From Escherichia coli (lineage in GTDB: Bacteria > Pseudomonadota > Gammaproteobacteria > Enterobacterales > Enterobacteriaceae): a DNA stretch of 64,000 nucleotides. The translations under genes were made by a program, and so were the position numbers. Where the stretch lies: the NCBI RefSeq assembly GCF_041886205.1, contig NZ_CP169029.1; one strand, 5' to 3'. Each line of letters starts with the position of its first letter. The first letter of the stretch is position 1. The notes under the pieces were generated by a model, which saw only the letters and a program-made list of their open reading frames with translations, had not been told where the DNA came from and ran no database searches. Positions 14,636 to 60,358 of this stretch are shown one piece after another.

Positions 14636-14728
14636 GGTGAGGTGGCCGAGAGGCTGAAGGCGCTCCCCTGCTAAGGGAGTATGCGGTCAAAAGCTGCATC
14701 CGGGGTTCGAATCCCCGCCTCACCGCCA
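14636..14728 (+). tRNA. serV: tRNA-Ser (anticodon GCU)
   Basis: 93 nt, GGTGAGGTGGCCGAGAGGCTGAAGG...long variable arm...CACCGCCA, anticodon loop cuGCUaa. Confidence 0.9.
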
Positions 14729-14731
14729 TTT

Positions 14732-14808
14732 GCATCCGTAGCTCAGCTGGATAGAGTACTCGGCTACGAACCGAGCGGTCGGAGGTTCGAATCCTCCCGG
14801 ATGCACCA
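14732..14808 (+). tRNA. argV: tRNA-Arg (anticodon ACG), copy 1
   Basis: 77 nt GCATCCGTAGCTCAGCTGGATAGAGTACTCGGCTACGAACCGAGCGGTCGGAGGTTCGAATCCTCCCGGATGCACCA. Confidence 0.9.
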
Positions 14809-14872
14809 TCTCTTACTTGATACGGCTTTAGTAGCGGTATCAAAAAATCTGCAGTAAAGTAAGTTTCCCGAT

Positions 14873-14949
14873 GCATCCGTAGCTCAGCTGGATAGAGTAC
14901 TCGGCTACGAACCGAGCGGTCGGAGGTTCGAATCCTCCCGGATGCACCA
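14873..14949 (+). tRNA. tRNA-Arg (anticodon ACG), copy 2
   Basis: Identical 77-nt sequence to copy 1. Confidence 0.9.
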
Positions 14950-15011
14950 TCTCTTACTTGATATGGCTTTAGTAGCGGTATCAATATCAGCAGTAAAATA
15001 AATTTCCCGAT

Positions 15012-15088
15012 GCATCCGTAGCTCAGCTGGATAGAGTACTCGGCTACGAACCGAGCGGTCGGAGGTTCGAATCCTCCCGGATGCACCA
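15012..15088 (+). tRNA. tRNA-Arg (anticodon ACG), copy 3
   Basis: Identical 77-nt sequence to copy 1. Confidence 0.9.
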
Positions 15089-15224
15089 TATTCTCCGAAA
15101 TCTTCAGCAATGAAGGTATCGAAGAGGTAGCGGTATTAACCGCAGGCACCAGGGAGGATAACGTTGCGCCAGCAACGGCCCGAAGGGCGAGCCGCAAGGC
15201 GAGTAATCCTCCCGGATGCACCAT
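15089..15224 (+). repeat. ~136-bp repeat unit ending in a duplicate of the tRNA-Arg 3' end (partial tRNA)
   Basis: Sequence ...ttcagcaatgaaggtatcgaagag...ggataacgttgcgccagcaacggcccgaagggcga...aatcctcccggatgcacca; ~90 percent identical to 15364..15500. Confidence 0.7.
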
Positions 15225-15286
15225 CTCTTAATTGATATGGCTTTAGTAGCGGTATCAATATCAGCAGTAGAATAAGTTTTCCCGAT

Positions 15287-15363
15287 GCATCCGTAGCTCA
15301 GCTGGATAGAGTACTCGGCTACGAACCGAGCGGTCGGAGGTTCGAATCCTCCCGGATGCACCA
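15287..15363 (+). tRNA. tRNA-Arg (anticodon ACG), copy 4
   Basis: Identical 77-nt sequence to copy 1. Confidence 0.9.
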
Positions 15364-18272: not shown

Positions 18273-18345
18273 AAAAAGGCCACTCGTGAGTGGCCAAAAT
18301 TTCATCTCTGAATTCAGGGATGATGATAACAAATGCGCGTCTTTC
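18273..18345 (-). ncRNA. micA: Small RNA MicA (SraD)
   Basis: Minus strand reads GAAAGACGCGCATTTGTTATCATCATCCCTGAATTCAGAGATGAAATTTTGGCCACTCACGAGTGGCCTTTTT; terminator hairpin + T5; located in the gshA-luxS intergenic region, divergent from luxS. Confidence 0.8.
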
Positions 18346-22467: not shown

Positions 22468-22803
22468 TTATATAATCGCCATCACTTTCCAGGCGAGCCC
22501 ATAGGCCAGCGCACTAAGCAGTGTTGGGATGATAATGCTGCGTGTTTTATAGAAACTGGCACCCAGTACCGCGAAGCCGACCAGCGTGGGCACGAAACGG
22601 CGTGTATCGTGCATCACTTCTGGTGCGGTAGAGACAACCAGCAGAGCGCATATCGAGGCGATGCCAATGGTGTCGAGCAAAATACCTACCGCGCCACGTT
22701 TGGTTGGGCGGGCATTACCCACACGCAGGCGCAGCGGCAAATAGCGGAAGCAATAATTCGCTGCGCCAACCAGTAACCCAAGCAGCAGAACCTCATAGCT
22801 CAT
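22468..22803 (-). CDS. ygaH: Branched-chain amino acid (L-valine) exporter small subunit YgaH (AzlD family)
   Basis: 111 aa hydrophobic ORF overlapping ygaZ stop. Confidence 0.88.
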
Positions 22804-23530
22804 CGGGCGCTCCTTGCCAGAATGCCTGGATTAACGCAGTGAGGCAGCCACAGACAATGCCTGCCAGAATGGCGACGGGAATAGAAAATAGCGTTACGCC
22901 TGCAAGGGCACCAACTAACGCTGCGGTAACGCAAAGAGATTGTTTGCGCTGGAAAGAGGCGAGCAGGAAACTCATAAAGAGTGCCGGAAGCATAAAACCT
23001 AATGCAGCTTCAACGACGGGATAACCTTGCAGCAAGCCGCTGCCGGAGAATGCCCCTATTACCGTACCAAATACCCACGATGACCATGAACTGAAGGCAA
23101 TGCCGATCATCCAGTTCTCGCTCCAGCGGCGATTATTGCGTACCAGTTTTGCGGTTGCGGCGGCAAAAACCTCATCCGTCAGGCCAAACGCCCACAGGGC
23201 GGTTTTCGATTTTTGCAGACGCTGAATAATACGGCTACGCAGTGAAGGGCCATACAACACATGGCGAACATCCATTGCCATGACGGTCAGTGCAGCAACC
23301 CACAAACTACTCCCGGCTGCCAGCATCGCGGTAATGACGAACTGGCTCGCGCCTGCATAAATGATGCAGGAGAAAAAAACGCTTTCGAGAGGAGAGAATC
23401 CCAGACGGGTCGCATTCAGACCGAACGCAAAGGCCACCGGAATATAACTAATAACAATCGGTAAACTGTCTTTGCATCCTTCCATGAAGGTCGCCGAACC
23501 AGGAGCAGGCTGTGGAGTAGGGCTTTCCAT
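22793..23530 (-). CDS. ygaZ: Branched-chain amino acid exporter subunit YgaZ (AzlC family)
   Basis: 245 aa multi-TM ORF. Confidence 0.88.
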
Positions 23531-23653
23531 AGAGTGTACGCTTAACGATTGTTAATATTATAAATAGACTGAATGAATATCTTAACCTTATCAGACTGAT
23601 GGGCTTCTTAACACCCTTATAAGTGTAAAGCCACGAAAACGGTTGCTGATTGC

Positions 23654-24838
23654 TTAATTTGCGGCTTCCTGACGATGAAAACCTCGCCACCAGACCAGTA
23701 AGTTAACCAGGGCAATCGTCGCGCCAGCCAGACAAACGCCAGCCCAACCGCCATGTTGCCAGGCTGAGGCTGAAATTAGCGAACCGGCGGCACCGCCAAT
23801 AAAGTAGCTAGTCATGTAACCTGCGGTCAGGCGATTGCGCGCATCAGGATGTATCCGATAAATTACCGTCTGGTTAGTGATATGCACGCCCTGCACGGTG
23901 AGATCCAGCACTAGGATTCCGATAATCAACGCCAGTACGGAAGTGTGACCAAACCAGATCGCCAGCCATGAAAGTAATAGCAGCAGCAGACCGAAAGTTG
24001 TGGTGTGGTGCGATTTGCCCTTATCGGCAAAACCGCCCGCCGGACGAGCGCCCAACGCTCCGGCAGCTCCCGCAAGTCCAAACAGACCAATTACACCATC
24101 GCTGTAGTTAAAAGGTGGAGCGGCAAGCAAAAAGGCCATTGAGGTCCAGAGAATGCTGAAATTGGCAAAGGTCAGGCAGCCCAGCAACGCGCGGGTACGC
24201 AGAATTTTATCGCTGATAAACATACTGAAAACGGAACCCAACAACTGTGGGTAGTTGAGGTGGGTTTCTGATTTCATTTGTGGCAGACCACGCCATAATG
24301 CCAGCGCCATCAGTGCCATTAACACCGAAGCAACCCAAAAGACGGTGCGCCAGCCGCCGAGATTCGCCAGCAATCCGGCAACTGTCCGTGCCAGCAAGAT
24401 CCCCAACAGCAGACCGCTCATAATAGTGCCAACCACTTTGCCGCGTTTGTCCGGTGAAGCCAGCGTCGCTGCCAGCGGAACCAGAATTTGTGCCACGACA
24501 GAGAATAAACCGGTTAATGCCGTACCGAGGATCATCATCGCCAGCGACTGACTGCTGGCAGTGATTAACATGCCGCCTGCCGCCAGTAAGGTCATCGAGA
24601 CAATCAGGCGGCGGCGTTCAAACATATCACCGAGGGGAACAAGAAACAGCAGACCTGCTGCATAGCCCAATTGCGCGGCGGTAACAATAAAGCCTGCCGA
24701 ACTGGCGGAAAGGGAAAAGTTACGCGCGATGGTGTCGAGCAATGGCTGAGCGTAATAGTTACTGGCGACCGCCAGACCGGTGGCGATAGACATCAGCACG
24801 ATCAGCGCCGGGCTAAGCTCATGATTAGGTTTAGTCAT
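23654..24838 (-). CDS. ygaY: MFS transporter YgaY (intact here; interrupted in K-12)
   Basis: 394 aa uninterrupted 12-TM-like ORF. Confidence 0.8.
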   Translation of the reverse strand: MTKPNHELSPALIVLMSIATGLAVASNYYAQPLLDTIARNFSLSASSAGFIVTAAQLGYAAGLLFLVPLGDMFERRRLIVSMTLLAAGGMLITASSQSLAMMILGTALTGLFSVVAQILVPLAATLASPDKRGKVVGTIMSGLLLGILLARTVAGLLANLGGWRTVFWVASVLMALMALALWRGLPQMKSETHLNYPQLLGSVFSMFISDKILRTRALLGCLTFANFSILWTSMAFLLAAPPFNYSDGVIGLFGLAGAAGALGARPAGGFADKGKSHHTTTFGLLLLLLSWLAIWFGHTSVLALIIGILVLDLTVQGVHITNQTVIYRIHPDARNRLTAGYMTSYFIGGAAGSLISASAWQHGGWAGVCLAGATIALVNLLVWWRGFHRQEAAN

Positions 24839-24938
24839 TATTTTTGTTCATCAGGTGATGATTAAGCTGGAAATCAATAATAGCGGATGTTGATGAATAT
24901 GGGATGAAAGATAGCTTGTTGAAATGTGCGATGTGGTT

Positions 24939-25120
24939 TGTAGGCATGATAAGACGCGCCAGCGTCGCATCAGGCATTGTGCACAGAACGGCGGATGCGG
25001 CGAAAACGCCTTATCCGCCATACGGAATGAGTGTATTTTGTAGGCATGATAAGACGCTCCAGCGTCGCATCAGGCATTGTGTACAGAGCGGCGGATGAGG
25101 TAAAAACGCCTTATCCGCCC
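24939..25120. repeat. BIME: tandemly duplicated REP (repetitive extragenic palindromic) elements
   Basis: Two near-identical units tgtaggcatgataagacgcgccagcgtcgcatcaggca...ggcggatgcggcgaaaacgccttatccgcc between ygaY and proX. Confidence 0.8.
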
Positions 25121-25129
25121 GAATAAAAA

Positions 25130-26122
25130 TTACTTCTGCGCTGCCAGCGCCTCATTCACCCAGCCATCGAACTGCTGCTGGTGGGCTTTGATCCAGCCAT
25201 CAACATGGCCCTGAATATCGCCTTCTGAGGCTTTGCCGTCATGCATAATGGCGTTCTGGGCGTTAATATCGGCCACTGGCAACTGCATAATGGCAAACAG
25301 TTTCGCTGCCGCCGGGTTTTTCTCGGCCCAGGCTTTGTTGGCAACGATATGCATGGTGCTGACCGGGAAGCCATAATTCGCACCATTCGGCAGTTTGGTA
25401 TCGGCGTTTTTATCGCCCGGCAGTGCGGAGAACGGCACCTGCAACCAGACCACATCTTTCCCTGGCTTCAGCTCATTACTCACCCAGTACGGCGTCCAGG
25501 TGTAGTAAAACACCGGTTTGCCCTCTTTGTAGCGACTGATGGTGTCGGCCATCATCGCCGCGTAGTTCCCCTGATTATGCGTCACGGTATGGGTCAGTTC
25601 ATACGCGGCAAGCTGGTGGTTGATCGCACCTTCGCAGCCCCAGCCAGGGTTACAACCGGTTAAATCCGCTTTTCCGTCGCCGTTGGTATCGAACAGTTTG
25701 GCGATCTTCGGATCTTTCAGTTGTGCGATGTTGGTGATTTTGTACTGGTCGGCGGTTTTCTTATCGATCAGGTAACCCTGTGCCGCGCCGTTAACAAATA
25801 CCCCTTCACGATAAAATTTCTTATCGCCACCGGCAGCTTCGTACATGTTGTCATGCAGTGGCGTCCAGTTCACGGCGGTGAAGGTTGCATCGCCGGAAGC
25901 AAGCGAGGTGTAGCCAACGTTGTAATCTACTTCGCTGGGTTTGTTGACGGTATAGCCTAATTTCTCCAGCGCACGGCTGACCAGCAGCGTCTGGAAGGTT
26001 TCTTCGGTGATGGTGCTTTGAACTGGATTAACAGTAATACCTTTGCCCGGCAGATCGGCAGCAAAAGTTTGTGTAGAGATAAGCGTGGCAAACGCTGTCG
26101 CAAAAAGTACGCTATGTCGCAT
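25130..26122 (-). CDS. proX: Glycine betaine/proline ABC transporter periplasmic binding protein
   Basis: 330 aa from [21 protein letters not shown] (signal peptide); ORF track start 26170 is an extension. Confidence 0.95.
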
Positions 26123-43155: not shown

Positions 43156-45285
43156 TCAATCAGTTGTGGAGAATCTTGAGGAACGAGAAACATGATCACT
43201 CCCTGAATGATTGATCTCTCTGATGTTGCTAGGTGAGAGGCAACCTCTCAACCTTCTTTTATTTATTATAACTAGTCCATCATGAGGAGAGTGATTAATG
43301 TTCACAGAATCCCCACGACTAAAGGCCAGAACGTTTTTAGTTGCAAATACACCCTCAAATGCGCTCCATATTCCTGCTTTATCTATATATAATGCGTGGA
43401 ATTCATTGTAGAGCTGCTGATAGGTAGAGCAACCTTTATTAAGCCACGCCTCACCGCCGACACGCGTCGACCCATCATCATTTTTAATTTCAGTCGTTGA
43501 TTTTAATACTTGGCCATCCCAGTAAACTAAAGGCCTGCTGAACGGGAGAGCGGCCATATATGCCATTGCTAATTGTTCATCTTGTTGATGGTTAAATAGA
43601 AAGTCATTGAAAAGATTGCCATTGTTAGGAAAATCGTGGTTAATGTTAATCAATATCCGTCTTTTTGATGGGATGCTTGAGATTGTTGAACCCGGTTTTG
43701 ATGCAAGGGTTTGGAGATCGCCACCAAATGAAAAAGCTTTTATCGTCTTCATGAGCAATGAAAAATCAATGGCGCTTAAATCATCTCTTTCATAAAGCAG
43801 CGATGACATTTGTTGTTCATCCAACTGACTAGTTACCAGATATTCCATGTAATTCATAACGGCTTTTTCATGATATTTTGGGTTAAATAAGTTAGTATTG
43901 TGTAATCGCTCATTATAATTTTTAAGCGGTGGGGTTATTGATCTTTCTATTTGTTCATGTTTTGAGTGTTTTGCTGCATCGTAACGTAAACCTCGTACGC
44001 CATATTTTCGCATTTCACGAACGTATTGATTTTGCAGCATAATAACCTGGTCACTTTTGGGGGTTGTTTTAGGCATTCCATTTAAACGCTTTTCTTTTAA
44101 TGCATAGAGGTTTTCCCATTCATCCTTAGAAATATTATCTTTACTTGCTTCGAAGTCTTTTGCAGTGAGATGTATATCTTCTGGATGGATTTGTTTACGT
44201 TCTTTTGTTACTGGATCTATAGTAAATGGAATCAAAACCTGACCTTGCCAATAGCCAGGGATACCACTTTCTATATCTTTACTGATCTTCGCTCGTATAT
44301 CAGTAGAGGGATAATCCAGGTCATTTTTACCACTACCCCCGATTCCCATAAAGTTAAAGGTATAATCAGGAATGATATCGATACCAAATTTTTTAGCATC
44401 TTTAACCAATGCGATAAAATCCTGCAAATCTCCCATTGGATTATGGATGGTACAAAGATCTTCGGGTTGATAAGCGTGAAACCAGTAACCTTTTTCTTCT
44501 TCGGGAGTTTCTGGTCCGTCGGCGCGGAAAGTTGTCACTGGAGGGATTTGTATATACCCATAATGGCAACGTGCAAACTCAGACATATTTTCCCTGATTT
44601 GCTGGTAGGTGGCATTAAAAGCATGAAGAATCGCTTCGCCAGGTTTTTTAGGGGTGATGATTTCACATTGTGATTTCTGAACAGCAGTAAGAGATTTACG
44701 CTCAAGTGTTTGCCGTAGATGTTCTGGATTGATTAATATTTTAAATGTTTCTTGCTGTCCGGAAGGTGACGTCACGTTAATATTATATACATCGGCTGCC
44801 AGCTCATAGTCAGGGATGTTAATAGCATATGCAACATATTTATCTTTTGGGGAGGGTTTTTCAGATATAATGTGGGTGAAATATTCAGCAGGACCATACT
44901 GGTGAACCCCCTTGTTATCTTCTCTTTCATTCATTGTATCTCTTTGATAAATCCATGTTTTTCCTTCTCCTATCCTGTCTGGCGCTGTAATGCTACGCTG
45001 TGCAGCTTTATTCAGTTCACGGTAAGTTGTATCTGGAAAAAGGGAAATTTTATAATCGTTTTTTAACAGATCATTAATGATTTTTTCTGCGTGAAAAGTT
45101 GATATAATTTCTCTGTCTTTTAAATCCTGAGGATAAACTCCACAAGCATTAATAATATTTGTTACACAGTTTAGATATTCTAATGTATTTAATTTGGAAT
45201 TTAGATCCCCGTCAGTAATGTTCCATGATAACAATGTGGGGGTGTCGATAGGTAAATTTCTTGGTCCTGGTTTTATAGAAAACAT
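43156..45285 (-). CDS. ygaQ: Alpha-amylase family (GH13-like) protein, probable intact form of ygaQ
   Basis: 709 aa AT-rich ORF; motif GVRGLRYDAAKH resembles GH13 conserved region II (GxRxDAxKH); adjacent to ileY as ygaQ is in E. coli; C-terminal ~40 codons may run into the anomalous block. Confidence 0.5.
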   Translation of the reverse strand: MFSIKPGPRNLPIDTPTLLSWNITDGDLNSKLNTLEYLNCVTNIINACGVYPQDLKDREIISTFHAEKIINDLLKNDYKISLFPDTTYRELNKAAQRSITAPDRIGEGKTWIYQRDTMNEREDNKGVHQYGPAEYFTHIISEKPSPKDKYVAYAINIPDYELAADVYNINVTSPSGQQETFKILINPEHLRQTLERKSLTAVQKSQCEIITPKKPGEAILHAFNATYQQIRENMSEFARCHYGYIQIPPVTTFRADGPETPEEEKGYWFHAYQPEDLCTIHNPMGDLQDFIALVKDAKKFGIDIIPDYTFNFMGIGGSGKNDLDYPSTDIRAKISKDIESGIPGYWQGQVLIPFTIDPVTKERKQIHPEDIHLTAKDFEASKDNISKDEWENLYALKEKRLNGMPKTTPKSDQVIMLQNQYVREMRKYGVRGLRYDAAKHSKHEQIERSITPPLKNYNERLHNTNLFNPKYHEKAVMNYMEYLVTSQLDEQQMSSLLYERDDLSAIDFSLLMKTIKAFSFGGDLQTLASKPGSTISSIPSKRRILININHDFPNNGNLFNDFLFNHQQDEQLAMAYMAALPFSRPLVYWDGQVLKSTTEIKNDDGSTRVGGEAWLNKGCSTYQQLYNEFHALYIDKAGIWSAFEGVFATKNVLAFSRGDSVNINHSPHDGLVIINKRRLRGCLSPSNIREINHSGSDHVSRSSRFSTTD

Positions 45286-45844
45286 AATAACGTTCCTCTA
45301 ATGGTAGAGTAATATGATGTATACGGAAACATAAAAATGTTTAATTGTTATGAAAGTAATTGCAAACAGATGTCCTATTTTTATCCAATATTTATATGGA
45401 AAAGGATAATGCTTAAATCTGTTTTTTTAATTATCGATGTGGTCTGGAGAGGCAACTGTCAAAAATCGCTCATACGAAACTAATTATTAGCAGAATAAGT
45501 TCTATAAAAGAATATATTGCTATATGAAGTTTATTTTTATGGAGTGAAAAGTAACAGATATCATAATGATGCGAAAACTCTTCAGTTAATGTAATAAACT
45601 TATATTATTAGATACAAAATCATTACAAAGTATCATTGAATCAATGATAACTATAGATAGTGTTAATTATTAACATTTGCTTGTTGACTGCGAGTATCGA
45701 CTTTGCGAATGGAGGCGATGTCGGGTTTTATGTCGCATGTATTGACGACCCAAGGTGAATGGGAACGCATAAAAATCTGTTATTTACATCATAAGATCAT
45801 CATGTTTATTGCGTGGTTTATAAGTATTGTTATTGCATACTTAA

Positions 45845-45920
45845 GGCCCTTTAGCTCAGTGGTTAGAGCAGGCGACTCATAATCGCTTGGTCGCTGGTTC
45901 AAGTCCAGCAGGGGCCACCA
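45845..45920 (+). tRNA. ileY: tRNA-Ile2 (anticodon CAU, lysidine-modified type)
   Basis: 76 nt GGCCCTTTAGCTCAGTGGTTAGAGCAGGCGACTCATAATCGCTTGGTCGCTGGTTCAAGTCCAGCAGGGGCCACCA. Confidence 0.85.
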
Positions 45921-46036
45921 AATAAAACAAGGACTTAGACAGGAAGCTGGCTAAGTCCTTTTTGTTTTGTTTCAATCTGGGTGACGTAATGGGTGACGTA
46001 ACTCAACTATAGGTGCCGTAGTCAGGGAGATTTAGC

Positions 46037-46831
46037 ATGAGCTTTAAGGATAAAGTTGAAGAGAAAAAAATGCGCCGTATGGCCCGTCCCCCTGAGTTAA
46101 CGGTAAAGGACTGGATTAGCCTTTATGATCTTCTTCGTTCAGCCAAAGCTCAAGACTCAGAAGCCATGTACGAAGACTTCGCCTCTGTGCTGTTAACTAC
46201 CCTGTCGGTTGAGCATCATCCGGAACTATACCGCCTGGACGGAAACAAACTAAACGCTGTTGCCGATGACCATTTTGCCTGGGACCTACTATCCGCCCCA
46301 ATGAAAGGGAAAATGTCCCCTGAAGAATTGGCGAAGCGCCCGAAGACCCTTTCCCAACTTCTTTGTATCTACGATGAAGATATCAGTAACGACGAGTCAC
46401 TTCGTACACATGGCTTCTTGCGTGACGCTATTGCCCCTATCCTCGATTTCGAGCTTCTGGATAGCATCGAAGATGAGCCTGACTACAAAGAAAAATATTT
46501 CGAGTTGCTAGCAGCGCAAAAGCACTCGACTCCCCCGCCACTAAGAGGGGAAAGTTATGCTATCAAACGAGAAGAGTTGCTGATCACAGCCCTTGCGGTT
46601 ATCTCTCAAAATCAAAGAGACGCTAATAAAAAGGTCGTCCCAACAGTTACTGAACTTCTGAATCAGATAGAAAAACATGCCTCTGCGTTCTGGCCTCACA
46701 GTAAACAACTTCCGATGTCTCGTGAGAATGCTTCTAAAGAGCTAGGCTTCGCCTTACATCTTTTAGAACAACCAAATCAGAATATTGAATTTCTTCGGGA
46801 AGCCAAAAAAGCAAAAAGAAAAAGTGCATAA
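46037..46831 (+). CDS. Hypothetical protein (264 aa), acidic, no recognisable motif
   Basis: ATG with AGGGAG RBS; first gene after the tRNA 3' end, where an integrase is normally found. Confidence 0.55.
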   Translation: MSFKDKVEEKKMRRMARPPELTVKDWISLYDLLRSAKAQDSEAMYEDFASVLLTTLSVEHHPELYRLDGNKLNAVADDHFAWDLLSAPMKGKMSPEELAKRPKTLSQLLCIYDEDISNDESLRTHGFLRDAIAPILDFELLDSIEDEPDYKEKYFELLAAQKHSTPPPLRGESYAIKREELLITALAVISQNQRDANKKVVPTVTELLNQIEKHASAFWPHSKQLPMSRENASKELGFALHLLEQPNQNIEFLREAKKAKRKSA

Positions 46832-46963
46832 AAAGAAATAGTTACAAAAGGTACCCAGTAATCTTCAGGAAGGTACACGAGAAATATACCGTTCAGTTTG
46901 ATTAACTCCGTTCAGTTTCAGCTTTCACCACCAGGAGTTATTCAATTGAAAAATAAACCAACC

Positions 46964-47167
46964 ATGTCTGATAAGGTTGTCGCCCTTCATCAGCCCCAAC
47001 GTCTGATTCGCATTGATACAATGCTTCAGCTCCTCGATTGCAGTCGCACCACCCTCTACCGCTGGGTTAAAGCTGGCATTTTCCCACAGCCGATAATGCA
47101 TGAGGGCCGAACCGTAGGATGGCCAGCCAATACGTATCAATGCTGGCTTGAGCAAAATAACAAGTAA
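46964..47167 (+). CDS. alpA: AlpA-family phage/island transcriptional regulator (MerR-like HTH)
   Basis: IRIDTMLQLLDCSRTTLYRWVKAGIFPQPIMHEGRTVGWPANTYQCWLEQ matches the AlpA pattern; ORF track start 46898 is a TTG-initiated extension, ATG at 46964 more likely. Confidence 0.7.
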   Translation: MSDKVVALHQPQRLIRIDTMLQLLDCSRTTLYRWVKAGIFPQPIMHEGRTVGWPANTYQCWLEQNNK

Positions 47168-47272
47168 TTCTGTTTGTTAAAGGGCTGAAATATTCAGCCC
47201 TTTCTTCATCTGACAATGAAACAAACTGGAACAAAAACGATTATTTTCACCTATTCTGCGACATGCTAAAAC

Positions 47273-48589
47273 ATGAGTAACTCTCTGATTAATCAAGTAA
47301 CAAAGCCCTCACCTGGTCAGGAACTCACCTCGGTATTTAATACTATTACGCCCGATAAGCCTGGCAACCTTGTTGAATATCAGCCAAAGGGAACGTTTGT
47401 TTTCAAAGAAGTGATGTGGTCTGTGCTGCCAGAGAAACGCAACCAGGACACGAAGATCATGAAAAGAATCTTCGGGGCAGTTGACAAGGTATCAGCGATG
47501 TCTCGCTTTCTTGCGGTCAGATATGATTTTCGGCTCCCGACCTACAGTGCGGATAATCGCATAATGGATGATTTCCATAATTTACTTTTCCGCCAGTTAA
47601 GTAAGAACTACCCAAAATCGTTTATCAGCTATCTTTGGGTAAGAGAGCAGGGCTCAGGGGAAGCACAGCATTATCACTATTTGTTGATGCTGGATGGCAA
47701 CTATATCCGTTATCCAAATAAGCTGAATACGATTGTCCGACATTGCTGGGAACAGGTTGCTGGTGGTTCGGTATGGTTCCCGGAAAACGGTTATTACTTT
47801 GTGAGCGAAAATGATCTCAAGACCTATACCGAATTGATGCTGAGAGTTAGCTATCTGGGTAAGCGCCGTACTAAAGAGTCAATTGATAAAGGTATCAAAC
47901 TTTTTGGCTCAGGCATGCGCAAACCGAAACCTGTCGCGCCTTCACGCCAAAAGTCTGCAATAACACCCTGCAAGCCAATCAACCAAAAAGCGGAGACGAA
48001 AACCAACGATCAGGATATGACGTTGAAATCCACCTACTCAGGAATGTTGGACAAATATTTTCTGGGCAAAGCCCGATTACCCGCCGTTCTGCGTAAACGT
48101 TCATCCTATGAACTTTATGACGAAAATAAATGGTGGTGTAATTCACCACGTTGGTCCGGCCATCGTCATAACTACGTGTTAGAGGCTCTGATTACTGGGA
48201 TCAGCCTTTCTGATTACGCACGCAAGTACAAGTTGAATCCAGTACGGGTATATGCAAACTGTCGCCGTGTTGGGGGGCAAAGCCTTAAAATTATTCACTG
48301 GGCATGGCATCGCTATTGCTTCCAGAAAAGCAAATCCACACAGGATGACTACATTAACAATCACCGGCTGAATCATAAAACAGCTAAAAAGCAGTTACGG
48401 CGTAAACCAATGAGCTCTCACTGGAGCCAGCACTTTGATCGATATTATCAAAAGTACTGGCCGAAAGGCTGGACTGTGGCCGACTACTGCCGTGAACACA
48501 ATCTGGTCGCCAGCACTGCCAGACGTTATATAGTCGATTTTCCATTTATAGGCCTGATAGACCCGTTCTTGTTGAAACCATGGTTATAG
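47273..48589 (+). CDS. HUH-motif protein, YagK/YfjJ-like (inovirus Gp2-type replication-initiator-like domain)
   Basis: 438 aa; HUH-like motif AQHYHYLLML; typical neighbour of alpA in CP4-type islands; C-terminal half basic, Trp/His-rich. Confidence 0.5.
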   Translation: MSNSLINQVTKPSPGQELTSVFNTITPDKPGNLVEYQPKGTFVFKEVMWSVLPEKRNQDTKIMKRIFGAVDKVSAMSRFLAVRYDFRLPTYSADNRIMDDFHNLLFRQLSKNYPKSFISYLWVREQGSGEAQHYHYLLMLDGNYIRYPNKLNTIVRHCWEQVAGGSVWFPENGYYFVSENDLKTYTELMLRVSYLGKRRTKESIDKGIKLFGSGMRKPKPVAPSRQKSAITPCKPINQKAETKTNDQDMTLKSTYSGMLDKYFLGKARLPAVLRKRSSYELYDENKWWCNSPRWSGHRHNYVLEALITGISLSDYARKYKLNPVRVYANCRRVGGQSLKIIHWAWHRYCFQKSKSTQDDYINNHRLNHKTAKKQLRRKPMSSHWSQHFDRYYQKYWPKGWTVADYCREHNLVASTARRYIVDFPFIGLIDPFLLKPWL

Positions 48590-49176
48590 AGATGAAAACA
48601 CCATAACAGTGTCACCTGGTATACTTACTGAGCGCGGCGTAACTTAAATATAAACACTTAGCCGCCATCAGTAAGCAGAGCCTTATCAACACTACCAGGG
48701 AATTATTGTGCAGCATGATAGCTGAGGTACCTCTCAATTCTTGACGGACATTAACGCACAGACAACGCTGATTACCTCCTGTAAGCCAATTTATATCTGC
48801 TTGCTGCCACATATCCGCTGGGACTAATCCCCTTTAAACACCTTTTACTTCAAAAAAATGTTTTCCTTCTGATTTATCCCATACGCGAAATAATGAAGAT
48901 TTTATTTTAATTACTAATACTTTCAATGAGATAAGATGCATACATTCTTACACTCATATGATCACTTTTATTTTTCTTTTAATATCAACACGTTATGAAT
49001 TGATCAGCACAAAAGTCACTGCAGGGGGTTAGCTGATTGAACGTTTCAGTTCGTTTCTAATGGCCACATATAGATTCACATCAAGAACTAGTGATCACTG
49101 TAGGGTAACGGTATGCCCAGATCAGCCTGCAGGGTATTCGCTGCGGATGACATGAAAAACAAAGACAGGGGATTGC

Positions 49177-49824
49177 TTACGGGTCAACAAACACACTGAT
49201 GGGGAGGTTAAACCGGCGCGCAAGTGCTCGCTTGTGATCCAGTGTTAATGTGCAATCCCCTTTCAGGATGCGACTCACCAGAGATTTATTACCAATCTCT
49301 TCTTCAAAATCGCTCTGAGTCAGTTTGTGCTGATCCATCAGTACGCGCAGTAAGGCAACACCCGTTGGGACCGCTGCAATACGGCTATTAAATTCAGCAA
49401 ACTCCGGCGCTTCATCTTCATACTGACCGATTTTCGCAACCAGAATATCCACCAGCGGATGGTCCGGCTCGTGTTCAATCAGATACTCGACCAGAGCCAG
49501 TGCATCTTCACTGTGGAAGCGTACGACTGATGTATAGGTAACATTTTGTTCAGTAATATATTTCATGGCTGCCAGTAAGTAGGAAGCTTTGAAAGTCACG
49601 TCCTGATAGTCCTTAGCTAACAAACTCCCATTCTCTTCAAACCGTTCAACAAATGCTGCAACTTCTTTTGGATCGATACGGCTGGTTTTATCTTTTCCGT
49701 TTCGAACAAACAGCTTTTGTTCTTCAGTATATAGCGTAAAAGGTACCTTCCTTGCCCCAGTAGACAGTTCAACTGGTTGGGAAAAAGACTCCAACATTAA
49801 ATGATAGAAATCTTTATAAGTCAT
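49177..49824 (-). CDS. Two-domain protein: unknown N-terminal domain + C-terminal XRE-family HTH
   Basis: 215 aa; C-terminus LTQSDFEEEIGNKSLVSRILKGDCTLTLDHKRALARRFNLPISVF fits HTH_XRE; lies 89 nt downstream of mcrC on the same strand. Confidence 0.6.
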   Translation of the reverse strand: MTYKDFYHLMLESFSQPVELSTGARKVPFTLYTEEQKLFVRNGKDKTSRIDPKEVAAFVERFEENGSLLAKDYQDVTFKASYLLAAMKYITEQNVTYTSVVRFHSEDALALVEYLIEHEPDHPLVDILVAKIGQYEDEAPEFAEFNSRIAAVPTGVALLRVLMDQHKLTQSDFEEEIGNKSLVSRILKGDCTLTLDHKRALARRFNLPISVFVDP

Positions 49825-49913
49825 GATTACTACTCCCTCATCATTTTAGCACTCAAGAAAATACATGATGTGGTTGATTATCCGGTTGATAATTATGAAT
49901 CGTCATCGTCTCA

Positions 49914-51215
49914 TTACGGGGAAAACAGGGGGAAGGACGATTGCCACTCACCTTCCACTAATGCCCCTGATTCAAGCTCGAAGGGCACACACCAGAGCGA
50001 TAAATGTTTATCAAAATGGAACACTGGCAACGGAGTATCAAAAAACTGATGACGTGGATATATCAGCATCATATTCCCCTTCCCTTGCAGATATTTTTGC
50101 CCATAAGCGAACATCTGATACAGATCAGCCTGGTTAATTTCATACTTTCTCAGGCTGTTATCAGCTCGGCTGTCTAACAGCTTCCATTTGGCATCCAGTA
50201 CCATTACCTGCTCACCTGTGATGAGAAAGTCAGGTTTAAGCATGAACCATTGTTGAGGAGCCCTTTCGCCAGCAGGTACATGATCTAACAAATAATGACG
50301 TTTTGCCTGCTCAATAAGCTGATAATCCCTCAGCAAAGATAAAGCCAAACTGCGCCCCACCCAGCATTCATATAATTTTTCCATCGGGAACAACAGCGAG
50401 ATCCCCTGATGCAACCCATGCTGAAAATCTGGATTCAGTTTTTCCAGAATAAGTTGGCACCATGGCTTGATGGCACGATAAGCATAGAGATATTTACCGT
50501 TGCTCCATTGCGCCAGAGGCTGCGTTGTACTGCCACAAATTGGCTCTATACCGTCCAGTTGGTGGCTCAACGTGTTCGCCTGTCGCCAGCTCTGCCCCTC
50601 TTTGGTCATTTTAAGCACCCAATTCAGGGCCGTACGTAACAGACGGTTTTCAACTCGCTGAGGTGAAAACTCCGCATAACGCACATGAAAGCGAGCATCT
50701 CTACCAGGAGGCTGTCTCATTTGTGCCGTGATGTTCAACTGACCACGGATAAAAGCGCTGTGCTCATCCTCAACAAGGTGGTAGTCGAACCGCAACCCTT
50801 TGTGTACCAGTTCGGTAAGATGCCGCAAGAACTCGCTGAAAATCCACTCATGCATCGGCTGGTTGCTCCGCTGCAATGCAGCCTGATTAACTTCTCGGGG
50901 TGTAATCCCCAATGAAGCGCTGAGCATTCGACGTAAAAGCTGACGCAGGGGGATTATCTCAGTTGGCGCTTCAAATGTGGTTTTGGGCAGAATTTCAATT
51001 GACTCGCCATTCGGGGATTGTAGATAACCGACATAGCTTCCCAAACGCAAAAACCGCTTCCCTTCTCGGCTGAGAATTTGAGAGGTACCACTCCACTTTT
51101 GTTGCAATTGCTCAAGCCAGGAAAAGGTTGCCTCAGAGACAATTCCCAAATCCATACTGGCTGTTTGAGAACTATCACAAGTCAGCAGAGCATATTCCCG
51201 GACCTGGATCATCAT
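49914..51215 (-). CDS. mcrC: McrC-family nuclease subunit of a type IV (modification-dependent) restriction system
   Basis: 433 aa; PD-(D/E)xK-like VLDAKWK motif; 4-nt overlap with upstream McrB-like gene. Confidence 0.75.
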   Translation of the reverse strand: MMIQVREYALLTCDSSQTASMDLGIVSEATFSWLEQLQQKWSGTSQILSREGKRFLRLGSYVGYLQSPNGESIEILPKTTFEAPTEIIPLRQLLRRMLSASLGITPREVNQAALQRSNQPMHEWIFSEFLRHLTELVHKGLRFDYHLVEDEHSAFIRGQLNITAQMRQPPGRDARFHVRYAEFSPQRVENRLLRTALNWVLKMTKEGQSWRQANTLSHQLDGIEPICGSTTQPLAQWSNGKYLYAYRAIKPWCQLILEKLNPDFQHGLHQGISLLFPMEKLYECWVGRSLALSLLRDYQLIEQAKRHYLLDHVPAGERAPQQWFMLKPDFLITGEQVMVLDAKWKLLDSRADNSLRKYEINQADLYQMFAYGQKYLQGKGNMMLIYPRHQFFDTPLPVFHFDKHLSLWCVPFELESGALVEGEWQSSFPLFSP

Positions 51216-53194
51216 GTGACAATACCCTGATAAGCTTCTACCGACGCGAAAGCACGTTCATTGATGCGAAAACGCCTGTCAGACAAGCTATCCGCAATAT
51301 CTTTCGGGAATAGTTCAGAGAATGACGGTAATTGTGCTGACTGTTGCAACAGGATAAAACGGTTTTCTTTCGCTTTTACCGAATCATTAAGCACCCAACC
51401 AATGCGCTCATAATCATCAAAGAAATACTCTCTCAGTAATGGAATGATTTTGTTCTGGAAGATGCTGGCCAGACAGGCTTCGCGGTCGGCATTATTTTCT
51501 AATTTTTTTAGTGGCATAAAGTAAGCATGGCCAATCATATGTTCACTATCCAGCAGCGCTTCGATCCGCTGATTAATACGCGTTAACAACGTTTCGACAT
51601 CAACACCGAACGCAGTGACCCCAGCTAACAGCTCCGGTCGTGCGGGCATTTCGGTAAAGCTAAAGCGTCGTCTTAGCGCCAAGTCCATTTGGATGAGTGA
51701 TTTATCCGCAGTATTCATCGTCCCAATGACATAAACATTTTGCGGTACTGAGAATGCTTGCTTTGAATAAGGGAGCATCAGCGACCGCTCATCATCGGCC
51801 CCTTGACGTTTGTCCGGCTCAAGAAGAGTAATAAGCTCACCAAAGATACGTGCTATATTACCGCGGTTGATTTCATCTATTATCAGTACATGTGGTAGAT
51901 CCTGACTATCGGCATTCTCAACAGGAGCCAGCAACTGAGTTAATTTTTCACGATCAATCGTCGTATCCTGCAACTCATATAGGGTCATCTGAGATAGTGA
52001 CTTGATGAAAATTTGCTCTTTAGGAAGGCTTGGGGTGTATGTTCTTAACCATTTAACTGAACGCATTTGATGGTAATACTCACGTTCATCATTGGGTAAA
52101 TAACTATACTCACCTGTAATCTCAGCTATTGCACGGAACTTATGATTTCCATCAGAGACGACGACTAAATCGCCATTCTTAATAATATTTTTAAAGGTAT
52201 TCACGGCAACAGCCATATAATTACTGGTGCCTTCCAATGACTGTTTTTCTGATGCAATCCGAGCTTTGACTGACTCATAGGTAGAGCAGTTACTAAAATC
52301 GATATCTTCTCCCCAACCTAGCAGGACATAATTGTTTGCCAGGCAGTCCTCATACACATCCTCTTCTCCGCCCATGGTATTACCCAGAGACATCTTCCAG
52401 ATCCGCCGACCTTTGAGTGAGATAGATTGTGTTGCACTCCCCTGAACTTTAACCCTGGCATTCAGGCACAGCTGTTTAAAAATACCATCCACAACTTCGT
52501 AGCGAAGCGCGCCCGATTTTTCATCAGTAGTTGCGCGAATCCCTTCGATAAAATCTTCATAGGAGAAGCTCTGATGGAAGGTGGTAAACATAATGCGCTG
52601 CTTTTCTACCAACGCCTTATAGCGTTCATTTACCAACTCCCGTAAGTCATTGCCATGATGTTCGAGCGTAGCCTGTTGGTACCACGTATTATCGGCAATT
52701 TTGACCGCCATTTCGGTGGTACTGTAGGTTTTACCCGTGCCGGGTGGTCCAAAGAGAATTTGGTTTAAGGGATACATTAACGATTGTTCCTTATTTTCGT
52801 TGTCTCTTTTTAGTCTGGGTTGGGTAGTTATAGATGGTTTACCACCCAGCAAAGCCACCAGCGTCTGCAACGCTTCAACGGATTCAACATCAGCCGCGAA
52901 ACCATATTGGGATGTACCGTTATCTTTCGGATAACGGCGGTAGCTGGTGCTTTTTACTTTTTCCCAAAGGCAGTGGATACCCGAAATGCGATCAATTTCC
53001 GCTTTTACGGCAAGGGTTTCAGGTGCAAGAACCAATGGACTCTTTTTAACCACGCCGTCCCGGCTGCGTTTGACATACAGATACTTTCCATTCCCGAGCG
53101 CATGTTCGGATGCATAGCTTGGCTCGAATTTTCCCGCCTCAAGCCGGTAACCCAATTCATTCAACGCCTGGTATATCTCGAAAGAATTCAGCAT
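51212..53194 (-). CDS. mcrB: McrB-family AAA+ GTPase with atypical N-terminal domain and ~190-aa insertion between Walker A and Walker B
   Basis: 660 aa; Walker A GPPGTGKT, McrB-type Walker B LIIDEINRGNIARIFGEL, FHQSFSYEDFIEG; inserted segment RRIWKMSLG...GDLVVVSDGNHKFRAIAEITGEY...RSVKWL. Confidence 0.75.
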   Translation of the reverse strand: MLNSFEIYQALNELGYRLEAGKFEPSYASEHALGNGKYLYVKRSRDGVVKKSPLVLAPETLAVKAEIDRISGIHCLWEKVKSTSYRRYPKDNGTSQYGFAADVESVEALQTLVALLGGKPSITTQPRLKRDNENKEQSLMYPLNQILFGPPGTGKTYSTTEMAVKIADNTWYQQATLEHHGNDLRELVNERYKALVEKQRIMFTTFHQSFSYEDFIEGIRATTDEKSGALRYEVVDGIFKQLCLNARVKVQGSATQSISLKGRRIWKMSLGNTMGGEEDVYEDCLANNYVLLGWGEDIDFSNCSTYESVKARIASEKQSLEGTSNYMAVAVNTFKNIIKNGDLVVVSDGNHKFRAIAEITGEYSYLPNDEREYYHQMRSVKWLRTYTPSLPKEQIFIKSLSQMTLYELQDTTIDREKLTQLLAPVENADSQDLPHVLIIDEINRGNIARIFGELITLLEPDKRQGADDERSLMLPYSKQAFSVPQNVYVIGTMNTADKSLIQMDLALRRRFSFTEMPARPELLAGVTAFGVDVETLLTRINQRIEALLDSEHMIGHAYFMPLKKLENNADREACLASIFQNKIIPLLREYFFDDYERIGWVLNDSVKAKENRFILLQQSAQLPSFSELFPKDIADSLSDRRFRINERAFASVEAYQGIVT

Positions 53195-53223
53195 TTCCTA
53201 CACCACTCCTTGATGAAAAAGCG

Positions 53224-56200
53224 TTAAGCCCCTTTCAACATATCAAACACCACGCGGGCAAAGCCCTTCGCCAGTTCAGGATTAGAGAGGTATTGCACCA
53301 TCATCTCCTGCTGGGCGTCGTTGCTGTCCATCACGGCATCATCAATGGCTTTCGGGAAATCGCCCAGCATCGCCTGCTCACGCGTATTGTTCGCAATCTG
53401 GGTCATCACCGCCTGGTTTTCTGACAGCTTGTCGCGCACCGCGAAGGCATAATTGATCATGTCTTTATCGGTCAGATTATCGGTGACGAACAGCTCGTTC
53501 AGGCGCGCCAGGATATTCGACAGAAACTCTTCTTTCTTGTCTTTCGGCTTCGCCGTACCGACATCATTCCCCGGTGTGATTTTGTATTCTGCCGCATCTT
53601 CCTGCAGCTTCAGATGCTGTTCGTGGAGTTTCGACAGGCGATAATGGCTCATCTCCACGTTGCTTAAATCAATCTCATCTTCTTCGATACGCTGTTCATG
53701 CAGTAACGGGCGCAGGTGGCGGGCAAATAGGCTCAGTTTTTCCAGGTTCTTGTCGTCGTAATCGACGATTTGCGACATAAACTCGTAAAAGCGGACAAAG
53801 CTGCCGAGGTCTTTCTTGAAGATATCCAGCTTACTTTTTTCTTTCTCGCACTCTTTGAAGCTGTTTTCCGCATTGGTGATCAGCACAACATCGCCGGTCT
53901 TCTTAGTACGTTCGAAGATCGCTTTGGCCTTTACATACTCGTCAATCGCCGAGGTGTAACGCTGTTTCCAGCGCTGCACCGCTGGTTTGCAGATATTACT
54001 AATGGCCGCGTTGGATTTGTTTTTGCTGAAGAACGCTTCGCAGAACTGCTCCACTTCGTTCCACAGGAAAATACCGCTGGTACGCAGCTTTTCAAAGAGC
54101 TCAAAGACCTGTTGCGGGTCGCTGACATCCGTCAGTTCTGCTGTCTGGTAGTACGGCTGGAAAGCCCCCAAAATCTCGTCGGGCTCGTTGTAGAAATCGA
54201 GCACAAAGGTGCCTGACTGCGCCTTCCCCGGATAGGTACGGTTCAGGCGTGACAGCGTCTGTACACACTCCACGCCGCCAAGCTTTTTATCCACATACAT
54301 GGCACACAGCTTGGGTTGGTCAAAACCGGTCTGGAATTTGTTGGCCACCAGCATCACCTGGTAGTCGTCGGTATCAAACGCTTTGCGCATATCCCGGCCT
54401 TTCAGGCCTGGGTTCATATTGATTTCGGTGAACTTCTGGTTAAGCAATGCAAGGCTATTGTGGTCATCTTCATGGAACTCAACTTCACCGGAGAACGCCA
54501 CCATTGCGCTGATCTTGTCGTATTTTTGCTCGGCGATGTATTTATCGAATGCCAGCTTATAGCGCACCGCTGCTTTACGCGAACTGGTCACCACCATCGC
54601 TTTCGCCTGACCAGCCAGTAAGTGCATCACATGCTTGCGGAAGTGCTCAACAATCACCTTCACTTTCTGCGACACGTTATGATCGTGCAGCGATACCCAC
54701 TGGTTGAGTTTGATCTTGGCTTTCTTGCTGTCTACTTCCCGGTCAGGATCGTCCAGCTTTTGCAGCAGCTTGTACGCCACCTTGTAGTTGGTGTAGTTCT
54801 TCAGCACATCAAGTATGAAGCCTTCTTCGATGGCCTGACGCATTGAGTAAACGTGAAACGCTTCCGGTTTGTTCGTTTTCGACGCCGGTTCCTGCGGATT
54901 AGGACGACGGCCAAACAGCTCCAGCGTTTTGGCTTTCGGCGTGGCGGTAAAGGCGTAATAGTTGAGATTGTTGCTGCCTTTACGTGCGGCGACGGTGGCA
55001 TCCAGAATATCTTCTGAAGACATCTCCACATCGTCATCCGCTTCTTCGGTCATAAGCACTTCTTTCAGCTGACGCGCCGTAGAACCACTCTGCGAGGAGT
55101 GCGCTTCATCGGCAATCACCGCGTATTTGCGCTGCTTGAGGCTGACGCTGTTTTCAATCGCCTTCAGGACAAACGGGAACGTCTGGATAGTGACGATAAT
55201 GATCGGCTGCGAGTTTTCCAGCGCGCTGGCCAGCTTCTCCGATTTAGAACCGTCGCCTTCTTTGTTATTGATCCGCCCGACCACGCCATCCTGATGCTCA
55301 AACTGATAGATGGTGTCCTGCAGCTGATCGTCAAGCACGGTGCGGTCCGTCACCACAATCACCGAATGGAACTGCTTCTCGCCATTTTCATCATACAGGC
55401 GGGAAAGCTGATGGGCCGTCCAGGCGATAGAGTTAGATTTGCCCGACCCGGCACTGTGCTGAATCAGGTATTTATTGCCGGTGCCTTCCACTGTGGCGGC
55501 GGTGATCAGTTTATTCACCACATCCCACTGGTGATAGCGTGGGAAAATCAGGCTCTCACTTTTGTACTTCAGGCCAATGGCATCTTCTTTTTCTACGATT
55601 TGCAGATGCACGAAGCTCGCGAGAATTTTCAGCAGATTGTCCGGCAGTAGCACCTCATTCCACAGGTAGCTGGTGGCGTAGTCGTTGGCATCTTCCGGGA
55701 TATCGTTCCCCGCACCGCCGTCATGGGTGCCTTTGTTAAACGGCAGGAAGAAGGTTTTATCGCCCTCGAGTTTGGTCGCCATAAACACTTCGTACTGGCT
55801 GACGGCAAAGTGCACCAGCGCGCCGCGTTTAAAGGTCAGCAGCGGCTCGGGTTTATTAGTGCCTGGGTCCTTTGGCAAACGCGTTTTCTTATATTGCGTA
55901 ATGGCGTTTTGCACCGTCTGCTTAAATTCAGACTTCAGTTCCAGGGTCGCTATCGGCAGGCCATTAACGAACAATACCAGGTCGATACGCCATTTCTTCG
56001 CTTTTATACCGGTATCTTCAAATGCGGCGTTCGATGCATGCGGGCTGTAAACCAGCTCCGGCACGATGCGGCAGATATTCTGTTTATAACGAGCCAGTGT
56101 TTCCGGATTGAGGTTATGTTCCGGCTTAAACTGGCACAGAGAAAAACGCGCGTTATGGCTTTTGATACCATGTCGCAGCACGCCTAAAGTGCCATAGGTG

Positions 56201-56472
56201 CGCGAAAGCATATCAGTAGCGTTGATGTCCGCTTTTTTCAGCTGCGCCACCAGCGCATCGAGGAAATGACGTTCGGTATCGGTAGGGTAAATTTTGGCAA
56301 ACTTCTCCCACTCCTGCGGCTGTGTGGTCTGCACAAAGGTCAGCACATCCTGGGAATACAGCGCACGTTCGCGATCATAGCCGTCAGTTTTGCCACAAAT
56401 CCAGCCTTTTGCTTTCATCTGAGCAATCATTTCGTTCTGGAAGATAAGCTCTTTGGTGCTGTCCATGCTCAT
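53224..56472 (-). CDS. hsdR: Type I restriction enzyme R subunit (HsdR)
   Basis: 1082 aa; helicase motif I SAGSGKS, DEAH-like ADEAHSSQ; 4-nt overlap with hsdS. Confidence 0.9.
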   Translation of the reverse strand: MSMDSTKELIFQNEMIAQMKAKGWICGKTDGYDRERALYSQDVLTFVQTTQPQEWEKFAKIYPTDTERHFLDALVAQLKKADINATDMLSRTYGTLGVLRHGIKSHNARFSLCQFKPEHNLNPETLARYKQNICRIVPELVYSPHASNAAFEDTGIKAKKWRIDLVLFVNGLPIATLELKSEFKQTVQNAITQYKKTRLPKDPGTNKPEPLLTFKRGALVHFAVSQYEVFMATKLEGDKTFFLPFNKGTHDGGAGNDIPEDANDYATSYLWNEVLLPDNLLKILASFVHLQIVEKEDAIGLKYKSESLIFPRYHQWDVVNKLITAATVEGTGNKYLIQHSAGSGKSNSIAWTAHQLSRLYDENGEKQFHSVIVVTDRTVLDDQLQDTIYQFEHQDGVVGRINNKEGDGSKSEKLASALENSQPIIIVTIQTFPFVLKAIENSVSLKQRKYAVIADEAHSSQSGSTARQLKEVLMTEEADDDVEMSSEDILDATVAARKGSNNLNYYAFTATPKAKTLELFGRRPNPQEPASKTNKPEAFHVYSMRQAIEEGFILDVLKNYTNYKVAYKLLQKLDDPDREVDSKKAKIKLNQWVSLHDHNVSQKVKVIVEHFRKHVMHLLAGQAKAMVVTSSRKAAVRYKLAFDKYIAEQKYDKISAMVAFSGEVEFHEDDHNSLALLNQKFTEINMNPGLKGRDMRKAFDTDDYQVMLVANKFQTGFDQPKLCAMYVDKKLGGVECVQTLSRLNRTYPGKAQSGTFVLDFYNEPDEILGAFQPYYQTAELTDVSDPQQVFELFEKLRTSGIFLWNEVEQFCEAFFSKNKSNAAISNICKPAVQRWKQRYTSAIDEYVKAKAIFERTKKTGDVVLITNAENSFKECEKEKSKLDIFKKDLGSFVRFYEFMSQIVDYDDKNLEKLSLFARHLRPLLHEQRIEEDEIDLSNVEMSHYRLSKLHEQHLKLQEDAAEYKITPGNDVGTAKPKDKKEEFLSNILARLNELFVTDNLTDKDMINYAFAVRDKLSENQAVMTQIANNTREQAMLGDFPKAIDDAVMDSNDAQQEMMVQYLSNPELAKGFARVVFDMLKGA

Positions 56473-60175: not shown

Positions 60176-60358
60176 AAAAAAGTGGCAAGATTATACCCCA
60201 TCAGGCATAAGATGCTTTGACTTATAACGCATCAGTTTGAAACACAATGGTGATGGGGGTCACAGGGGCTGACATGTACTTTTAAGATTAAAAAGCATTA
60301 ACATCTACTTTTGAAGAAAACAGAAAAAAACAATCACAAACCTTTAAAAACAAAAACT

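Follow-up and report, generated by a model that had tools for sequence, protein, structure and literature searches.

The Escherichia coli DNA analysed here, a stretch of 64,000 nucleotides (contig NZ_CP169029.1 of assembly GCF_041886205.1; hereafter the window), carries at positions 23654-24838, on the minus strand, what is almost certainly an intact, ancestral and selectively maintained ygaY gene for a twelve-helix MFS transporter, and the pseudogene found in strain K-12 arose from it when one copy of a 7-bp repeat was lost. A difference between intact ygaY and the K-12 pseudogene is already known: the K-12 status is textbook annotation, and the intact protein is present in RefSeq for thousands of genomes. 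The present analysis adds the exact lesion (one 7-bp unit), the finding that this lesion is confined to about 6.5% of complete genomes, and the strength of selection acting on the intact allele. The features of the locus, all on the minus strand, are as follows.

22468..22803, minus strand: ygaH, L-valine exporter subunit (ORF and orthologous-locus annotation)
22793..23530, minus strand: ygaZ, L-valine exporter subunit, downstream neighbour of ygaY (ORF and orthologous-locus annotation)
23531..23653, minus strand: ygaY-ygaZ spacer with a promoter-like TTAAGA-17-TATAAT (23585 to 23557), for ygaZH (consensus scan, 10/12)
23654..24838, minus strand: ygaY CDS, intact MFS transporter, 394 codons and stop (ORF, Pfam, RefSeq identity, AlphaFold)
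24571..24584, minus strand: perfect tandem 7-bp repeat, GGCGGCA-GGCGGCA, gene nt 255-268, codons 85-90, TM helix 3 (alignment with MG1655, sequence check)
24602..24634, minus strand: MFS motif A, LGDMFERRRLI, codons 69-79, TM2-TM3 loop (translation and alignment)
24839..25129, minus strand: proX-ygaY spacer of 291 bp with two REP/BIME units of about 100 bp (Rfam, K-12 alignment)
24943-25020 and 25043-25120, minus strand: the REP/BIME units (Rfam naRNA4; 73.4 and 59.6 bits)
25130..26122, minus strand: proX, last gene of proVWX, upstream neighbour of ygaY (ORF and coordinates from E. coli B)

The initial annotation had described ygaY as an uninterrupted reading frame of 394 amino acids for an MFS transporter at this place and as a pseudogene in K-12, and both parts of that description hold. 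In the ORF listing of the window a single frame with an ATG start occupies exactly 23654..24838 (minus strand), and its translation has no amino acid differences from WP_000165699.1, 'MFS transporter', the name that RefSeq gives to this 1185-bp CDS in strains that are nearly identical. The gene lies 1 nt from its counterpart in E. coli B and 1 nt from that in strain 214-4. The frame is not a chance one, since its match to Pfam MFS_1 (PF07690) reaches 142.2 bits with a gathering cut-off of 33.4 (E=2.6e-41), and the transporter assignment agrees also with the twelve-helix structure predicted for the protein, which is discussed below. Gene order in the window, proVWX-ygaY-ygaZH-emrR, agrees with that of K-12 and E. 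coli B.

The pseudogene status ascribed to K-12 was likewise borne out. In the record NC_000913.3, ygaY of MG1655 (b2681) is entered as a pseudogene at 2808316-2809493 (1178 bp), and PGAP marks the CDS, the match to which is 7 bases shorter than the window gene, as 'frameshifted'. The alignment with K-12 ygaY, proposed earlier as a check, placed the K-12 gene (P76628) as an orthologue in the same locus between proX and ygaZ, with 98.6% DNA identity; it contains 12 substitutions and one 7-base gap, at gene nt 255-261. Where the window reads CTG GCGGCAGGCGGCA TG, K-12 has a single GGCGGCA unit. Because one unit is gone, the K-12 frame shifts in codon 86, within predicted TM helix 3, and the product ends after 88 residues, whereas in the window both units are present at 24571-24584 and the frame is open, so that it does not carry the K-12-type single-unit allele. 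When the 7 bases were put back in K-12 ygaY, the encoded protein became identical to that of the window, all 12 substitutions being synonymous. The K-12 gene thus has one recent lesion and is otherwise free of decay.

Loss of a unit from a tandem repeat is a classic outcome of replication slippage. It is most likely that one GGCGGCA unit of codons 85-90 was lost in K-12 through such an event, which would have put the reading frame out of register within TM helix 3 and left the 88-residue product. The perfect repeat itself occurs only in some lineages (the window strain, B, 214-4); O157, ST131, CM2 and RIVM_C039227 read GGCAGCGGGCGGTA at this position.

To what extent the K-12 allele is shared by other strains could be seen from 5,426 complete E. 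coli genomes. A 1385-bp query around ygaY found a match in 5,418 of them, at 96-99.9% identity, chromosomal and single-copy (median of one place per genome). The deletion was counted with a query of 100 bp around the K-12 junction, and a genome was taken as K-12-type when it matched ungapped at identity of at least 99%. This junction was present in 353 of 5,417 complete genomes (about 6.5%), and the band between 95 and 99% identity was empty. The remaining 5,064 genomes were less than 95% identical to the K-12 junction; in 54 of 55 sampled rows the aligned span was 107 bases per 100 of the query, which means that both repeat units are present, the exception being strain S115. An earlier count by identity bands, made with a 100-bp query taken from the window, was abandoned in favour of the junction query, which separates the two types cleanly; the former was confounded, since ungapped divergent alleles (93-94%) share a band with gapped K-12 alleles (90%). 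The sampled one-unit genomes (ER1709, AML001_par, Stbl4, J53 and BZKR2G40) bear lab-strain names or have K-12-like sizes. As all one-unit genomes are at least 99% identical to K-12 around the junction, the distribution is consistent with one event passed down among K-12 derivatives. Thus, the strain-level difference announced by the initial annotation is real, with the refinement that K-12 is the outlier and the window strain the ordinary one.

Shigella, E. fergusonii, E. marmotae, E. albertii and Citrobacter likewise encode an intact YgaY of 393-394 aa (93% identity for the last). Given the rarity of the one-unit junction and these intact orthologues in Shigella, Escherichia relatives and Citrobacter, the intact gene is the usual and ancestral state and K-12 the exception. 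A few lesions of other origin occur. The ygaY of FORC_081 has an independent 1-bp deletion at nt 145, which causes a frameshift, and in PCP06021 most of ygaY is deleted together with the whole of ygaZ. In S115 an independent 19-bp deletion (window 24568-24586) takes out the very repeat, GGCGGCAGGCGGCA, of which K-12 has a shortened form.

Selection was assessed by pairwise dN/dS among eight intact alleles and the repaired K-12 allele. For pairs with dS above 0.08 (dS 0.09-0.20), dN was 0.001-0.008 and dN/dS 0.008-0.047. Such ratios among divergent intact alleles show that selection maintains the gene, and strong purifying selection acts on ygaY within E. coli. Indeed, the carriers of WP_000165699.1, among them E. 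coli B, 214-4 and RIVM_C039227, have a protein identical to that of the window with 1 to 40 synonymous nt differences, the highest figure being that of RIVM_C039227.

The protein belongs to a large family, as judged from the 1,144 homologues with E<=1e-30 obtained in a scan of 1.84 billion cluster representatives. In a family alignment of 81 members with 35-56% identity, P68, G142, G251 and G268 are invariant. The MFS motif A is G-x-x-x-D-R/K-x-G-R-R/K in the TM2-TM3 loop; in YgaY its G70 and D71 are nearly invariant, being conserved in at least 90% of the 81 homologues. The AlphaFold model built with this alignment (pLDDT 95.2, pTM 0.93) is all-helical and has the 12-helix MFS fold, and its two-bundle architecture superposes on SotB and MdfA at TM 0.84. 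The top PDB folds in a Foldseek search were all of DHA1 type (SotB, TM 0.84-0.85; MdfA, 0.83-0.84; NorA, 0.80), and the best full-length matches of the family profile in the PDB were SotB (1e-15) and EmrD (1e-14).

SotB, the E. coli DHA1 sugar efflux protein (PDB 6KKI/6KKK), superposes with rmsd of 2.4-2.6 A over about 380 columns, but it shares only 17% identity with YgaY, and as the NCBIfam SotB equivalog (PRK03545) scores 63.8 bits with a cut-off of 401, YgaY is not a SotB orthologue. MdfA, NorA and EmrD, DHA1 multidrug/H+ antiporters to which YgaY is likened by fold (TM 0.80-0.84 for the first two) or by family profile (EmrD), are 15-18% identical to it, and YgaY lacks the canonical antiporter motif C. 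In DHA1 antiporters motif C is G-x-x-x-G-P-x-x-G-G, in TM5; the G-P dipeptide is absent from the YgaY TM5 region GKVVGTIMSGLLLGILLARTVAGLL, in which the glycines are conserved. Other DHA1 models also stayed below their cut-offs (Bcr/CflA 50.4 vs 200.9 bits, Cmx 52.5 vs 400, EmrD 38.1 vs 479). No NCBIfam model reached its cut-off with the window YgaY, and the same was true across the 81 homologues; hence no specific name can be given to the protein. The TCDB files YgaY as 2.A.1.36.3, in the YnfM family (2.A.1.36, acriflavin-sensitivity), a membership that we take from the TCDB listing as given in PMC5417439. Taken at the level of sequence and model, YgaY is a putative DHA1-like proton-coupled carrier outside the characterised subfamilies.

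As to what it carries and in which direction, our best guess, in which confidence and doubt are about equally balanced, is that YgaY exports a small metabolite, drug or toxic cation by exchange with protons, which is predicted because the closest folds are those of DHA1 antiporters. Import is a live alternative since the N-terminal half of the protein resembles aromatic acid/H+ symporters and the glucose transporter GlcP. The best NCBIfam match to this half is the aromatic acid/H+ symporter model TIGR00895 (78 bits, E=6e-22, far under the cut-off), and the missing G-P of the DHA1 motif C would also suit a symporter that takes up an organic acid or a sugar-like nutrient together with H+. On the other hand, matches over the full length, by sequence or fold, are to exporters (SotB, Cmx/CmrA, Bcr/CflA, EmrD, MdfA, NorA), the YnfM family is placed in the TCDB beside drug-efflux families, and the neighbours ygaZH and emrRAB encode exporters, the last point being a weak one. 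We regard import as possible, and rather doubtful. Gene neighbourhoods of distant homologues (41-57% identity) have no common members and therefore give no functional clue.

Other rival explanations concern the state of the gene itself. That the open frame might be an artefact of sequencing or assembly, masking a K-12-like frameshift, is suggested by the segment 34663-43253 of the window, which looks error-rich and uncorrected and makes parts of this assembly unreliable. Yet the ygaY region agrees with several independent genomes at 99.9% identity, the gene stands a single nucleotide from the B and 214-4 alleles, WP_000165699.1 is annotated in many independent genomes, and the 5,064 genomes without the K-12 junction had, in all sampled rows but one, the two-unit length; an artefact is thus barely conceivable. 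It is also very unlikely that ygaY, although open, is functionally dead, a dispensable E. coli gene that happens so far to have escaped disruption in this strain. K-12 is viable without an intact copy, no ygaY phenotype is known, and lesions have arisen sporadically and independently (FORC_081, 1 bp; S115, 19 bp; PCP06021, ygaY-ygaZ), but a dead gene would hardly retain dN/dS of 0.01-0.05 at dS up to 0.2, a Citrobacter protein that is 93% identical, or a conserved family of the size given above. One might further suppose that the two GGCGGCA units form a slippage-prone on/off site of ygaY, with the K-12 and S115 lesions as outcomes of a local hot spot, and that the repeat acts as a phase-variation (contingency) switch toggling the gene in lineages with the perfect repeat. 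The K-12 lesion does correspond to exactly one unit, the S115 deletion hit the repeat position independently, and the perfect repeat is confined to some lineages such as those of the window, B and 214-4. However, two units make a very short tract, 353 of 353 one-unit genomes are at least 99% identical to the K-12 junction with none at 95-99%, and recurrent independent gain or loss of the unit in unrelated lineages was not seen among the 5,417 genomes. We consider a hot spot highly improbable, and a switch equally so. The reading that we prefer is that of an intact, selected ygaY with one loss of a repeat unit in the K-12 lineage.

The quality of the assembly is uneven, since the window also contains an apparently corrupted stretch of 8.6 kb. 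No ORF of the segment 34663-43253 (8,591 bp) exceeds 190 aa, and BLAST against the 5,426 complete E. coli genomes gave no match to it, its first 4 kb having been searched also in distant mode; the sequence on either side agrees with other strains at 99.8-100% identity. Relatives carry there 10,164 bp with stpA, ygaP, ygaV, yqaE, kbp, csiR, gabPTD, lhgO, glaH and the 3' end of a ygaQ-like gene. In global alignment the segment is weakly collinear with stpA-glaH of relatives (score 1940 vs 534-575 for shuffles), with about 59% identical columns and local matches on one diagonal. The differences are deletion-biased (2,196 deleted vs 623 inserted bases) and the substitutions strand-asymmetric (C>T 354 vs G>A 118); similarity to the stpA-glaH reference at the protein level is absent. 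Natural divergence and horizontal replacement were considered and rejected, because the DNA is still weakly collinear although no protein similarity is left. The segment has the look of a single-pass long-read patch left uncorrected, or of some other corruption, and not of biology. An alpha-amylase-family ORF at its edge (43156-45285, minus strand) has 709 aa and is 750 aa long in strain AH04; it ends at a chance stop, as its true C-terminal 74 codons lie inside the anomalous segment. In GDSC2227PM the corresponding gene is split by IS1.

A separate observation concerns the end of the window, where a genomic island with defence genes (45845-60175) adjoins a tRNA gene with CAT anticodon at 45845-45920, annotated as tRNA-Ile in a relative. 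The island contains a 264-aa hypothetical protein, a YagK/YfjJ-family protein, an McrC-family protein with an AAA ATPase (49914-53194) and the R, S and M subunits of a type I restriction-modification system (53224-60175). Among the matches listed, GDSC2227PM was the only one to cover 44028-60369 (about 16 kb, 99.8%), and the other listed genomes match the hsd genes only, at about 78%. The defence genes continue with a Drt1a (UG1) reverse transcriptase gene with a C-terminal nitrilase domain (about 60371-64000, plus strand), which continues past the window end; its frame is stop-free for more than 1,210 codons, with a PADLOC Drt1a score of 1336 bits, Pfam RVT_1 and a YVDD motif. Megablast of this gene against the 5,426 complete E. 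coli genomes gave no match. At the other side of ygaY, the window has a tRNA cluster of tRNA-Ser GCT followed by four identical tRNA-Arg ACG (14636-15363, plus strand), ordinary for the region, and the MicA sRNA adjoining luxS (18274-18345, minus strand), which is expected in this region of E. coli.

The proX-ygaY spacer differs between the strains: it is 191 bp in K-12 and 291 bp in the window because K-12 carries a single REP/BIME unit where the window carries two, one 100-bp block being missing from K-12 in the alignment. A simple consensus scan of this spacer found no sigma-70-like promoter, and no obvious Shine-Dalgarno sequence precedes the ygaY ATG on reading of the sequence. Downstream, the hexamers of the promoter-like element in the ygaY-ygaZ spacer, the one good site that the scan gave, are identical to those of a constitutive RpoD promoter between these genes (PMC3946193). 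According to another study, ygaY DNA in K-12 is transcribed at a low level, which rises after hyperosmotic shock, most so without StpA, and anchors an H-NS bridge to the downstream regulatory element of proU (PMC10656529). This role of ygaY DNA is independent of the reading frame. As for the gene, the consulted passages of the E. coli literature that name ygaY treat it as a pseudogene or cryptic gene, a pseudogene control, a flank of proU or a neutral integration site, and a literature search combining ygaY, MFS and Salmonella returned nothing.

The importance of the finding is slight. The K-12 pseudogene reflects a lineage-specific loss of 7 bp, and elsewhere in the species and in neighbouring genera ygaY is kept under strong purifying selection. 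The K-12 locus is widely used for neutral integration or as a pseudogene control, as in the literature just mentioned. Since the loss is specific to the K-12 lineage, K-12 is the wrong background in which to look for the function of YgaY; a strain with an intact allele, or K-12 repaired by the missing GGCGGCA, would be the right one.
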